A DNA stretch of 48,277 bases from an uncultured Planctomycetales bacterium (GTDB taxonomy: Bacteria > Omnitrophota > Gorgyraeia > Gygaellales > Profunditerraquicolaceae), in assembly GCA_964645795.1 (NCBI GenBank), contig CAZYCL010000005.1, positions 124,771 through 173,047 of the forward strand. Direction: 5' to 3'. Positions 1 through 15,664 of this stretch are shown piece by piece. Numbering within the stretch: the first letter of the stretch is position 1; each line of letters opens with the position of its first letter. Made by a program: the position numbers and the translations under genes. The notes below the pieces were generated by a model. It saw nothing but the letters and a program-made list of their open reading frames with translations. It made no database searches and had not been told where the DNA came from.

Positions 1-22
1 CGGGAGAACCGGCCGAGTTTAA

Positions 23-97
23 TGTCCCCAACCGGATTTGAACCGGTGTCGAGAGCTTGAAAAGCTCTTGTCCTAGACCAGGCTAGACGATGGGGAC
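23..97 (-). tRNA. tRNA-Glu (anticodon TTC), CCA not encoded
   Basis: Reverse complement GTCCCCATCGTCTAGCCTGGTCTAGGACAAGAGCTTTTCAAGCTCTCGACACCGGTTCAAATCCGGTTGGGGACA folds as a cloverleaf: acceptor GTCCCCA/TGGGGAC, anticodon stem AGAGC/GCTCT with loop TTTTCAA, T-loop TTCAAAT. Confidence 0.95.
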
Positions 98-336
98 TGT
101 CTTTCAATCAAACCTATCAAATAACCCTTGTCTTTACGACGCTTAATTTCGTTTTCTCGTTTGCGCTCTTCGGTTCGGGTTTTAAACTCTTCTTTGTAAA
201 TAACCTTGAGCGGTCCTTTATGCTTTGTGGATCTAACGCTATTCTGATTGTGCCTTTTTAGTCTTGCCTCTAAATCTTCGCAGCTGCCCGTATAATGCCA
301 GCCGTCTTGATTTGCCAAAACATATACGTAATACAT
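73..336 (-). CDS. Small GIY-YIG nuclease family protein (UPF0213-like), 87 aa; last 8 codons overlap the tRNA-Glu 5' end
   Basis: YYVYVL...WHYTGSCEDLEARLKRHN...RSTK...EEF...KRENEIK matches the GIY-YIG pattern (two Tyr-containing strands, conserved Arg, His-Asn and Glu). Confidence 0.85.
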   Translation of the reverse strand: MYYVYVLANQDGWHYTGSCEDLEARLKRHNQNSVRSTKHKGPLKVIYKEEFKTRTEERKRENEIKRRKDKGYLIGLIERQSPSSSLV

Positions 337-352
337 TTATGTCGAGAGCTTG

Positions 353-421
353 TCCCGGCACCCTAGTTTTTTTATTCTAGGGCCGGGATCCCGCCGCCTG
401 AACCGATCTGGGGCTGCGGGA
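353..421. repeat. Tandem pair of TCCCG...CGGGA mini inverted-repeat elements (36 and 33 bp)
   Basis: 353-388 tcccggcaccctag-T-rich-ctagggccggga and 389-421 tcccgccgcc...ggggctgcggga, inserted in the anticodon loop of the tRNA copy. Confidence 0.9.
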
Positions 422-446
422 AAAAGCTCTTGTCCTAGACCAGGCT

Positions 447-506
447 TCCCGCCAGGCCATCATATAGAGGGCGGGATCCCGCTCGCTATCCAATAGCCTA
501 GCGGGA
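447..506. repeat. Tandem pair of TCCCG...CGGGA mini inverted-repeat elements (30 and 30 bp)
   Basis: 447-476 tcccgcc...ggcggga and 477-506 tcccgct...agcggga, inserted between tRNA nt 13 and 14. Confidence 0.9.
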
Positions 507-526
507 AGACGATGGGGACTATATAT

Positions 527-2959
527 TTACTCTTCCTCTTCGGCGATCACATGCGCCACACAGGAAACCCTATCTTTATCAGCTATCTTGATCAGGCGCA
601 CTCCCTGGGCAGAACGTCCGGTTTCCCGTATATCCTTTACCGCACACCTCAAGAACATGCCATTCTGGGTGATCACCATCAACTCGTCATTATCGGTGAC
701 GGGCTTAAGATTTACTGCCTCACCGTTTTTGTCGGTCACTTTGATATTAATAATGCCTTTGCCGCCGCGGCTGGTCAGGCGATACTCTTGGGCGAGCGTG
801 CGCTTGGCAAATCCGCGCTCCGTAACCGTTAAGATCGATGAGTCTTTGCTTACAAGGATCATGTCGATAACCTGGTCTTTTTTTGCCAAAGAAATGCCCC
901 TTACGCCTCCTGCCCCCCTGCCCATATCCCGGACTTTGACTTCGGAAAACCTGACGGCTTTTCCTTGACGGGTAGCAATCAAGAGCTCCTGCTTGCCGTC
1001 GGTAAGTTCGACTCCGACCAGGGCATCGTCCTTGTCCAGGCTTATTCCGATGATCCCGCCTTTGCGAGGATTGCCGTAGGCGTCCAGCTTGGTCTTTTTG
1101 ATCTTGCCGGTGCGGGTGACCATGACCAGGAACTTGTCCGGGGAAAACTCTTTTACCGGAATAGTGGAGCTGATTTTTGCCCCGGCTTCCATATGAACGA
1201 GGTTTACGATAGCCTTACCCTTGGAGGCGCGACCGGCCTGAGGGATCTCATAGACCTTAAGCCAATGCACCTGCCCCTTATCGGTAAATATCAACAGGTG
1301 ATCCTTGGTGGAGGCAACGAAGAGGTGCTCGACGAAATCCTCCTCCTTCACTTCCGCCCCTGTCACGCCTTTTCCGCCGCGCTTCTGTTTGCGGTAAGAC
1401 GACACCGGCAGACGCTTTATGTAGCCGCCGTGGCTGATGGTGACAACCACGTCTTCTTCGGCGATCAGGTCTTCCACTTCCAGCTCCGCGACCTCTCCTA
1501 CTATATCGGTGCGGCGCTCATCCCCATACTTCTTCTTCAGGTTTTCCAGCTCATCCTTAATAATGGCTTCTATCTTCTTCTCGGAGGCCAGTATCGCCCG
1601 GCACAGTTCTATTTTTTTCAAAAGCTCTGCGTATTCGGCGTCGATCTTGTCCCGCTCAAGCGCGGTAAGCCGCTGAAGCTGCATCTCCAGTATCGCCTGG
1701 GCCTGGATCTCCGAAAGATCGAACTCCTTAACAAGGTTTTTACGCGCGTCGTCCGTGCTCTTGGACGTCTTAATGGTCTTGATGATCTTATCTATGAACT
1801 TAAGGGCTATCTTTAGCCCTTCCAGGATGTGAGCCCGTTTTAGCGCCTTATCCAGCTCAAACTGCGTCCTGCGCCTGATGATGACCTTGCGGTGCTCAAC
1901 ATAAGCCTGCAGCATCTGGTGCAGATTGAGTACTTTGGGCCGGTTGTCAACGAGCGCCAGCATTATGACTCCGAAGGTTGTTTCCAGTTGTGTGTGCTTA
2001 AAAAGAAGGTTGAGTACTATCTGCGGCTCGGTGTCGCGTTTAAGCTCAACTACAATGCGCAGGCCGTCTTTGTCAGACTCGTCGCGTATATCGGATATTC
2101 CTTCCAGTTTTTTATCGTCGACCAGCTCGGCTATCGCTTCGATGATCGAGGCCTTTTGCACCTGATAGGGTATCTCGGAGATGACTATCAGGTCTTTGCC
2201 GTTCTTCTGGTGCTCTATCGTGGCCTTGGCCCTTACCGTAAGCTTTCCTCTGCCCGTGGTATAAGCATCCTTGATCCCTCCTTTGCCGCAGATAATGCCG
2301 CCGGTGGGGAAATCCGGCCCCTTAACGTGGCGCATCAGATCCTTTATTGGTGCTTCGGGATTATCCAAGAGGTAAATAGTGGCGTCGGCTACCTCATTTA
2401 AATTGTGCGGAGGGATATTGGTGGCCATGCCTACGGCTATGCCGCTTGAGCCGTTGACCAGCAGGTTAGGCAGGGCCGCGGGCAATAGCAGCGGCTCCTT
2501 CAAAGAGGCATCAAAGTTCGGCCCGAAGTTGACGGTTTCTTTATCGATATCCTCCAGCATCGCCTCGGAGATCGCTGCCAGTCGCGCTTCCGTATAGCGC
2601 ATCGCCGCTGCCGTGTCGCCGTCGATCGAACCGAAGTTACCCTGACCGTCAACCAAGGGATAGCGCAAAGAGAAATCCTGGGCCATCCTTACCAAAGTAT
2701 CGTATACCGCCACATCGCCGTGGGGATGATATTTGCCCAGGACCTCGCCGACGATACGGGCGCACTTCTTAAAAGGTTTGGAGTGGTCCAGGTTTAACTC
2801 CTGCATGGCGTAAAGGATCCTGCGGTGCACGGGCTTCAAGCCATCGCGCACATCCGGAAGCGCCCTGCCTACGATTACGCTCATGGCGTAATTAAGATAG
2901 GAGTCCTTGACCTCCTCTTCGATATAAACCGGGATTATCTTTTCGTTTCGCGTATACAT
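527..2959 (-). CDS. gyrA: DNA gyrase subunit A
   Basis: [30 protein letters not shown] (catalytic Tyr), GyrA-box QKRGGKG and C-terminal beta-pinwheel repeats; start placed at ATG 2959 (MYTRNEK) because the ORF-track extension runs into a repeat. Confidence 0.98.
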
Positions 2960-2961
2960 TG

Positions 2962-3039
2962 AATGAGGCCGCAACGCTTTGCTAAACCCAGCAAGGCGTT
3001 GTATGGCCTAATTAATCCCGCCGAGGCTACGAGGCGGGA
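2962..3039. repeat. Composite palindromic element: 52-bp AATGAGGCC...GGCCNAATT hairpin plus a 24-bp TCCCG...CGGGA hairpin
   Basis: Ungapped 37/52 match to 15229-15280 with compensatory stem changes; both copies are followed 2 nt later by TCCCG...CGGGA (here 3016-3039). Confidence 0.8.
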
Positions 3040-15228: not shown

Positions 15229-15334
15229 AATGAGGCCATAATACTTTGCCGGGCCCGGCAAAGTATTGTTGGGCCGAATTTCTCCCGAGCTTGCACTGAA
15301 CCGCCAACAGCGGTCAATGCGTATAAGCTCGGGA
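15229..15334. repeat. Second copy of the composite palindromic element (52-bp hairpin plus 52-bp TCCCG...CGGGA hairpin)
   Basis: Contains the perfect palindrome AATACTTTGCCGGGCCCGGCAAAGTATT; TCCCGAGCTT...AAGCTCGGGA at 15283-15334; homologous to 2962-3039. Confidence 0.8.
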
Positions 15335-15351
15335 CTCAATACTTAAATTCC

Positions 15352-15587
15352 GGGCGGTTAGTTCAATTTAAATTTTCCGACAAGGAAAATTTAAATTGAT
15401 CCTTTTCGAACGTCGTTTTGCGACAAGCAAAACAGTGAGAAAAGGATCTAATTGTTGGATAGCACAGAGGATTTCGGGCGGTTAGTTCAGCCCCTGCAGA
15501 AAGCGCAGGGGCTCCCGCGGATGCAAAAAGCGCATCCTTGGTCGTTGGTAAAAGGTGTTCACTACCCGCCAGCGACTAAAAGATTTC
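15352..15587 (+). pseudogene. Two aborted 5' copies of tRNA-Val, each followed by paired hairpins
   Basis: GGGCGGTTAGTTCA at 15352-15365 and GATTTCGGGCGGTTAGTTCAG at 15470-15490, the latter identical to 15582-15602 (leader plus nt 1-15 of tRNA-Val). Confidence 0.8.
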
Positions 15588-15664
15588 GGGCGGTTAGTTC
15601 AGTTGGTTAGAACGCCACATTGACATTGTGGAGGTCACAGGTTCGAGTCCTGTATCGCCCACCA
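15588..15664 (+). tRNA. tRNA-Val (GAC), CCA encoded
   Basis: Cloverleaf with anticodon stem CCACA/TGTGG, loop TTGACAT, T-loop TTCGAGT, 3' ACCA. Confidence 0.96.

Follow-up and report, generated by a model that had tools for sequence, protein, structure and literature searches.

The window analysed here, a stretch of 48,277 nucleotides, takes in the dnaN-gyrB-gyrA section of the gene cluster at the replication origin, in a genome of Candidatus Omnitrophota. Downstream of gyrA it carries a tRNA-Glu(UUC) gene that is broken up by four short hairpins, a gene for a small GIY-YIG nuclease and a second, intact tRNA-Glu(UUC), and the current analysis is concerned with the arrangement of these hairpins, their relatives in other genomes and their probable role. 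The features of the locus are collected in Table 1.

Table 1. Features at the tRNA-Glu locus, in window coordinates
Feature	Position	Strand	Basis or remark
CGGGA end of a further hairpin, clipped by the window edge	1..5	-	TCCCG on the - strand; marks the T-loop insertion site
T-arm piece CCGGTTC (tRNA-Glu nt 52-58), start of the old 3' remnant	6..12	-	Sequence and relatives' architecture
Intact tRNA-Glu(UUC), working copy, fused to the end of the GIY-YIG reading frame	23..97	-	ARAGORN; Rfam tRNA, 61 bits
Open reading frame of the 87-aa single-domain GIY-YIG nuclease	73..336	-	Pfam PF01541, E = 8e-14
Old tRNA-Glu nt 39-51, followed by TAA and the ATG of the reading frame	340..352	-	Exact k-mer match
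Pair of anticodon-loop hairpins, in tRNA order 389-421 then 353-388, placed between the second and third anticodon bases	353..421	.	
Old tRNA-Glu nt 14-38	422..446	-	Exact k-mer match
Pair of D-loop hairpins at 13/14, in tRNA order 477-506 then 447-476	447..506	.	
Old tRNA-Glu nt 1-13, starting 7 nt past the gyrA stop (529-527)	507..519	-	Exact k-mer match; ancestral tRNA position
gyrA, conserved upstream neighbour	527..2974	-	Anchor for orthologous sites

The interrupted tRNA-Glu and the adjacent nuclease gene

All four hairpin units open with TCCCG and close with CGGGA, and the members of a pair abut at CGGGA/TCCCG. Their lengths are 36 nt (353-388), 33 nt (389-421) and 30 nt (both 447-476 and 477-506), and the original prediction of two tandem pairs within 353-506 holds in its coordinates as well as in the ends. 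The intervening pieces of the minus strand (519-507, 446-422 and 352-340) are exactly nt 1-13, 14-38 and 39-51 of the tRNA-Glu(UUC) at 97-23. Excision of the hairpins restores nt 1-51 of this neighbouring tRNA exactly, as had been claimed, with 0 bases lost or duplicated; one pair is inserted at 13/14 and the other between the second and third anticodon bases (standard 35/36).

Each unit had also been proposed to form a hairpin, which agrees with the RNA minimum free energies of -13 to -18 kcal/mol per unit and z-scores of -2.3 to -3.9. Folded as single-stranded DNA (ssDNA), the 187-nt stretch gives z = -5.6 on either strand, and for the anticodon pair the fold predicts a three-way junction, with the anticodon stem closing it. 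The pattern TCCCG-N15-45-CGGGA is seen 8 times in the window against 2.1 expected, a number reached in 0 of 100 shuffles. The four copies are alike in their stems only, and the unrelated interiors noted earlier are thus borne out among the four; relatives do exist beyond them, the first D-loop hairpin (477-506) having a homologue at the same site in the related locus L090. A fifth hairpin starts at the window edge, and its T-loop junction (GGTTC/TCCCG..CGGGA/AAATCC) is also found in 7 distinct pairs of relatives. The piece of T arm before it is separated from the intact tRNA-Glu by a spacer of 10 nt.

An assembly artefact is ruled out, as L002, assembled independently from another sample, shows no difference anywhere in the region and the same layout occurs in dozens of independent assemblies. 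No promoter-like or terminator-like sites were found at the locus, and a scan against Rfam gave no match besides the tRNA, with no intron or ribozyme.

The Pfam GIY-YIG domain fills residues 1-70 of the 87-residue protein, and its best relatives of solved structure are the UPF0213 proteins BH0048 and EF2693 (PDB 1zg2, 1ywl). The open reading frame (ORF) lacks a stop of its own and runs on into the tRNA, which encodes the final 8 sense codons and, in the D arm, the terminating TAG (75-73). The same is true of about 21 of 24 relatives, whose proteins end in ..PSSSLV or ..VPIV before the stop. Since the stop sits inside the tRNA, processing by RNase P would leave a nuclease message that lacks a stop codon. 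Residues Y5, Y15, R25, H29, N30 and E61 are kept in at least 23 of the 24 relatives, and pN (0.23, against a pS of 0.85) is below pS in all 210 pairs compared, rates which indicate that the nuclease ORFs are under purifying selection with their synonymous sites saturated. A look-up of the exact protein in public assemblies returned no record, probably because the gene, overlapping a tRNA, is never called.

Insertion sites and movement of the cassette among relatives

The loci following gyrA have been compared in 80 species-level genomes, 64 of which were evaluable. In Omnitrophota gyrA is usually followed by tRNA-Glu(UUC) after a gap of about 10-20 nt; an intact copy lies at most 30 nt from the gyrA end in 32 of the 64 species, and 25 of these are clean empty sites. 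The interrupted fragment of the window occupies this ancestral position and is therefore the old 5' part of the resident tRNA-Glu; the newcomers are the ORF and, beyond it, the intact tRNA. The GIY-YIG gene was found in 8 of the 64 species, accompanied by tRNA fragments in all 8 and by hairpins together with fragments in 7, as compared with only 3 of the 55 species that lack the gene but have a tRNA-Glu. The link between the hairpins and this GIY-YIG subfamily, which had been put forward from the window alone, is thus recovered across species, and the loci of the 3 species without the gene look like relics. Thirteen of the 80 species-representative contigs (L005-L084) end less than 300 nt past gyrA, which suggests that repeats at this locus often break assemblies and that cassettes may be under-counted. 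Downstream of gyrA in two other genomes (L024 and L053), tRNA-Glu nt 1-16 are repeated and followed by a filler of about 100 nt (..AAATGAGCAC..) in place of TCCCG hairpins, an insertion of a different kind at this gene.

In the window the cassette splits the old tRNA simply at nt 51/52, and the old 3' remnant begins at the window edge. The order of tRNA nt 1-38, hairpin pair, nt 39-51, GIY-YIG gene, intact tRNA and 3' fragment with pairs recurs in 16 metagenomic loci, and pairs are found on both sides of the gene in relatives. The gaps of this common layout are 2-12 nt before the ORF (3 nt in the window) and about 10-20 nt after the intact tRNA; its 3' fragment begins near nt 24 and contains the anticodon pair and often a T-loop pair too. 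A second class of cassette has its pair at 13/14, with the ORF junction 9-18 nt beyond. The interrupted copies are truncated, comprising nt 1-51 or about 24-76, and many relatives carry nt 24-51 and the pair in duplicate. The duplication is compatible with integration of a circular element or with double-strand-break repair with crossover, between which these data do not separate.

Related genomes and metagenomic relatives of the nuclease together provide 38 distinct pairs, of which 20 are at the anticodon, 11 at the D-loop position 13/14 and 7 in the T loop, one site in each loop of the cloverleaf and no other position. A loose anchor pattern for the T loop gave mostly false matches in coding DNA, and the T-site counts have been taken from a stricter pair search. 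The junctions are invariant (cgtct/..../agcc, gctttt/..../caagc and ggttc/..../aaatc), and a target-site duplication is absent at all 38 junction sets, in keeping with the clean insertion that had been expected. Pairs occur 15 times in 866 kb, in all 15 cases within tRNA-Glu fragments.

A typical unit has a 7-bp stem of the type TCCCGCC/GGCGGGA and a free loop of about 16 nt, giving hairpins of about 30-36 nt and whole pair inserts of 58-69 nt. When inserts are anchored by the tRNA flanks alone, a TCCCG start is found in 32 of 33 and a CGGGA end in 29 of 33. Stem positions 6-7 covary, 67-68 of 72 being Watson-Crick pairs (C-G, A-T, T-A, G-C). The loops have no real shared motif; they are A/T-rich with only a weak enrichment of TTAA/ATTA. 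To judge from these comparisons the stems are under constraint, as they have been held while the synonymous sites of the ORF became saturated, and the loops have drifted, neutral drift at such a depth being sufficient to make them look unrelated. Among the recognisable related hairpins, 12 of 22 share site, place within the pair and orientation. The unit length is divisible by 3 in only 32 of the 72 distinct related hairpins, and the multiples of 3 seen in the window cannot be upheld as a rule.

Hairpins of the type TCCCGNN..NNCGGGA number 42 in 840 kb where 0.7 are expected, as the proposed excess over chance demands, and about 9 of them are solitary and lie outside tRNA-Glu fragments. One of these solitary hairpins, TCCCGCC-N10-GGCGGGA, lies in the gyrB-gyrA spacer of the window (3016-3039).

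Evidence for movement of the cassette comes from several loci. L085 and L086 share about 620 nt of near-identical cassette with few mismatches, extending from nt 14 of the left fragment through a pair, the ORF and the intact tRNA to the right-hand pair, in flanks that are unrelated. The cassette of L086 sits in the tRNA of an older GIY-YIG copy, and the three anticodon pairs of this locus are identical, yet its two nuclease proteins differ at many positions; in L090 one identical hairpin is found at both the anticodon and the T-loop sites. The outer halves in L022 have the acceptor stem GACCCTG/CAGGGTC and the usual downstream sequence; its working tRNA has GACCCCA/TGGGGTC and is foreign, as this stem is unlike that of the resident halves. 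The identities of nuclease and gyrA are weakly correlated (Spearman rho = 0.29), and the window nuclease is nearest to that of L087/L088, whose gyrA ranks among the most distant. The gene thus shows the presence/absence polymorphism (8 occupied against 25 clean empty sites) and the host-incongruent phylogeny of homing genes. These alignments demonstrate, at the level of sequence, that the cassette moves horizontally and brings a complete tRNA with it. The locus makes mobility directly testable, since its empty and filled alleles are clean, the junctions are exact and one cassette is known from two contexts.

The association with tRNA genes extends to the wider nuclease family. All 18 metagenomic relatives of at least 55% identity adjoin a tRNA-Glu that lies directly downstream, mostly with an overlap at its 5' end, and all 18 are surrounded by TCCCG...CGGGA hairpins; of the more distant relatives (33-60% identity), 7 of 10 are beside tRNA-Met, -Pro, -Gly or -Gln. 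The small GIY-YIG genes of L104-L110 are such more distant members adjoining tRNA-Met, -Pro, -Gly and -Gln, and where the neighbour is tRNA-Pro, -Gln or -Met, its fragments have GC-rich ..CGCC..GGCG.. hairpins such as GTCGCC-GC-GGCGAC inserted into, or standing in for, the D or anticodon arm.

Another part of the window (15340-15587) contains two extra 5' copies of tRNA-Val of 14-15 nt (15352-15365 and 15476-15490), upstream of the real gene at 15588-15664. After each copy come two hairpins whose sequence is quite different (15366-15396 and 15398-15448; 15491-15511 and 15519-15537), and no GIY-YIG ORF is present in the region. The copies have the look of a relic from a similar event at another tRNA gene. 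Between tRNA-Cys and these relics a strong 52-nt hairpin (TCCCGAGCTT..AAGCTCGGGA, 15283-15334, z = -5.9) has been identified, the stem of which includes GAGCTT/AAGCTC, the tRNA-Glu anticodon stem. A 94-nt 'tRNA-Val' called in L080 was rejected as a false positive within GC-rich coding sequence.

A probable tRNA replacement cassette and the alternatives

The region is probably the scar, together with the working parts, of a tRNA-Glu replacement cassette in which the hairpins are the recognition sites of the nuclease, a reading that starts from the demonstrated architecture, exact loop positions, stem constraint and association with the nuclease gene. The role assigned to the hairpins is modelled on the Ssn family, which comprises single-domain GIY-YIG proteins of about 94 aa (cd10448) whose binding to a hairpin repeat is limited to ssDNA, with cleavage a few nt upstream (Chenal et al. 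2025, Nat Commun, PMC11893778). The Neisseria repeat, NTS (CGTCATTCCCGCGMAVGCGGGAATCYRG), contains dRS3 and is named SRM in other bacteria; copies lie on either side of the ssn gene, and binding depends crucially on the C right after the palindrome (PMC11893778).

By this analogy the adjacent enzyme would bind a folded hairpin in ssDNA and cleave the strand at a distance of a few nt. Hairpins in tandem would lend each other, on the opposite strand, the 3' TC(CCG), and the pair may then constitute two convergent sites, one per strand. Pairs and cassette could have been spread or copied through recombination or gene conversion over tRNA homology, which would result in precise junctions without duplications and in identical pairs on both sides right after insertion. 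It may be the GIY-YIG protein that mobilises the hairpins. The landing of pairs in loops may reflect a folding of tRNA genes as cloverleaves when single-stranded. The pairs would also chop what is left of the tRNA homology into stretches of 13, 25 and 13 nt. If the working tRNA crossed over with these remnants anywhere to the right of the D-loop pair, a dead tRNA would result and the nuclease gene would be locked in, and a nuclease-free working tRNA could be rebuilt only by a crossover in the first 13 nt; elements with a D-loop pair would for this reason be hard to lose.

Several points weigh against this reading. It contains no mechanistic account of why the pairs land in loops, and a hairpin-dependent enzyme alone cannot account for the cutting of empty tRNA targets. 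Neither strand is favoured, the counts of G.T and A.C mismatches being similar and the sense and antisense folding energies equal. The possibility of a pair as an inverted duplicate of a single hairpin was dropped, since hairpin 1 shows only a weak and inconsistent similarity to the reverse complement of hairpin 2. The likeness to Ssn is also incomplete. Membership of cd10448 was judged by a blastp E-value below 1e-10 to Neisseria SsnA, the reference being the N. gonorrhoeae orthologue (L113, 1189-1473; 94 aa, Y6/Y17/E64, with 16 dRS3 copies within 2.5 kb), and the window protein gives no alignment with it. With a profile built from 24 tRNA-Glu-linked proteins the scores are 56 bits for UPF0213 BH0048, 41 for EF2693, 38 for the cd10448-like protein of L111 and 30 for SsnA. 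None (0) of the window hairpins matches the SRM consensus HGTCWYN(0-2)YYVSBRHN(0-5)WNVSBRGN(0-2)RNCYNB, because their loops are of about 16 nt and not 0-5 and because stem position 6 differs; with the loop relaxed to 25 nt there are just 2 matches among the related tRNA-Glu-linked hairpins. Finally, the NTS-like 5' flank (CGTC-T) is present here only at the D-loop site.

The original prediction regarded the hairpins as independent non-autonomous micro-transposons, each transposing alone and landing near another copy with the GIY-YIG protein acting in trans. Precise junctions free of target duplication suit this explanation, as do the solitary hairpins in excess of expectation, including that at 3016-3039, and the identical hairpins at two sites of L090 and identical pairs beside two differing nuclease genes of L086, which point to some copying between sites. 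That part of the proposal stands. The unit, however, is the pair: the hairpins are nearly always paired, they are confined to three loop positions of a single tRNA species, and no dispersed family of near-identical copies is seen within a genome stretch. The agreement of related hairpins in site, place and orientation indicates descent with the tRNA-bearing cassette. GIY-YIG enzymes act by hydrolysis, and none is known to rejoin DNA. Taken as a whole the explanation is unlikely.

A role at the level of RNA, whether as intron-like inserts, as elements in the leader of the nuclease mRNA that serve its processing or stability, or as the arms of an RNA resembling a tRNA, appears less likely still. 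The inserts do spare all the cloverleaf stems, the anticodon pair has its predicted three-way junction, and the fragment, which lies directly 5' of the ORF, is itself probably co-transcribed with gyrA and the tRNA; the locus yielded no promoter or terminator. An excess of G.U over A.C mismatches is nevertheless absent and both strands fold equally well, and the fragments, being devoid of the 3' half, have no acceptor stem and give no mature tRNA. Pairs are found also in the 3' fragments past the tRNA, at a distance from the ORF start, there is no Rfam match, and bacteria, to our knowledge, are without a bulge-helix-bulge splicing system.

That the hairpins are functionless debris, left by break repair where a nuclease cut the tRNA gene, is the least probable explanation: they lie only in non-functional fragments and in each cassette class a pair is 9-18 nt from the ORF junction, which recalls the distant cutting of GIY-YIG homing enzymes, but the same stem sequence is found at three sites in dozens of species, stems stay conserved and covarying while loops and synonymous sites of the ORF are saturated, and the hairpin sequence is not derived from the flanks.

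The replacement cassette may, more tentatively, represent an undescribed class of selfish element that destroys a resident tRNA and supplies its own. A small hairpin-specific ssDNA nuclease from the UPF0213 side of the GIY-YIG family would use convergent pairs planted in the loops of an ssDNA cloverleaf, the pairs would home into unprotected tRNA-Glu-like sequence, and loss of the nuclease by recombination would be lethal; the same logic could operate at tRNA-Pro, Gln, Met, Gly and Val in other phyla. Apart from this wider reading, the locus illustrates how an essential single-copy tRNA gene can be invaded without cell death, a spare being brought along.

Relation to known nuclease and hairpin systems

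A miniature element of the MITE type or derived from an insertion sequence was rejected as an explanation, since there is no target duplication, pairs occur only in tRNA-Glu fragments and the copies share only their stems. A tRNA intron, whether of bulge-helix-bulge type or group I, was likewise rejected: the interrupted copies are truncated, the scan against Rfam gave no intron or ribozyme, and the inserts are of only 58-69 nt. The split, permuted and multi-intron tRNAs of archaea, cases of tRNA genes disrupted by mobile elements (PMC3293823), are similar in having interruptions at loop positions, 13/14 among them, and halves that flank inserted DNA. Their pieces are spliced or joined via bulge-helix-bulge motifs to give functional tRNAs, whereas here truncated pieces stand beside a separate intact gene, which is the working one.

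The GIY-YIG homing genes I-TevI and SegB, the latter of the phage T4 tRNA gene cluster (PMC2330249), resemble the cassette in being present or absent at a conserved site and in spreading along with flanking sequence, the target of SegB being a tRNA gene region. In contrast to these, the 87-aa protein is without a DNA-binding domain for reading a long double-stranded target, the cassette restores its target by bringing a whole tRNA, the leftover halves of the target bear conserved hairpin pairs, and cleavage of the empty site is only hypothetical.

Similarities are also evident with the REP/BIME repeats and their RAYT and with the IS200/IS605 elements, systems of single-strand transposition guided by hairpins, which have short hairpins recognised as ssDNA (as would be the case here) and no target duplication; BIMEs moreover have their hairpins in inverted pairs. 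The enzymes differ, RAYT and IS200/IS605 employing HUH/Y1 transposases with covalent intermediates and the present system a hydrolysing GIY-YIG protein, and REPs are dispersed, near-identical within a genome and without a tie to tRNA loops.

The closest counterpart is the Ssn/NTS system, and the early comparison with Neisseria dRS3 has turned out to be apt, since dRS3/NTS hairpins are the targets of a small GIY-YIG nuclease (PMC11893778). Each system has a GIY-YIG protein of one domain and about 90-100 aa that bears the catalytic Tyr, Tyr and Glu, here with 87 aa and a Tyr/Tyr/Glu spacing resembling Y6/Y17/E64 of SsnA. In both the gene is flanked on both sides by hairpin repeats of 20-50 nt, here four upstream and one starting downstream. 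The NTS core TTCCCGCG..CGCGGGAA-TC has its match in TCCCGC..GCGGGA, which here likewise precedes TC, and at the D-loop site the tRNA's own CGTCT provides an NTS-like 5' flank. Most ssn genes are flanked by hairpins, in a layout that the authors call "identical to" an insertion sequence; tRNA goes unmentioned in their work, and the role of nuclease-hairpin modules outside Neisseria is left open there together with the spread of the hairpins (PMC11893778). The system described here differs in its loops of about 16 nt as against about 3 nt, in its abutting convergent pairs, in the restriction of the hairpins to three exact loop positions of tRNA-Glu fragments as against hundreds of dispersed copies, and in the fusion of the nuclease gene to a complete tRNA gene.

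Some related observations were made in the course of this comparison. The cd10448-like protein of L111 is flanked by TCCCGGCG-AA-CGCCGGGA hairpins. Another Omnitrophota genome (L051, 2358-2428) has a canonical Neisseria-type NTS (CGTCATTCCCGCGCAAGCGGGAATCCAG) and a second hairpin in frame in a gyrA mini-intein. L113 (NZ_CP119140.1), a 'plasmid' record in PLSDB, is actually the whole 2.17-Mb chromosome of N. gonorrhoeae.

By its profile scores the protein is not assignable to the Ssn clade and appears nearer to UPF0213 than to SsnA. The literature searched contains no earlier description of GIY-YIG proteins with tRNA fragments or in Omnitrophota, nor of the present system, which is a tRNA-linked variant of the nuclease-plus-hairpin modules in a GIY-YIG subfamily neighbouring Ssn. 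UPF0213 is a large family with solved structures (1zg2, 1ywl) and no assigned function, and the resemblance suggests that hairpin-guided cutting of ssDNA extends past cd10448 to UPF0213-like proteins. New hairpin/enzyme pairs of this kind are of practical interest as ssDNA-cutting tools. Judged by analogy, the tRNA-Glu cassette resembles the Ssn/NTS system and probably works alike.

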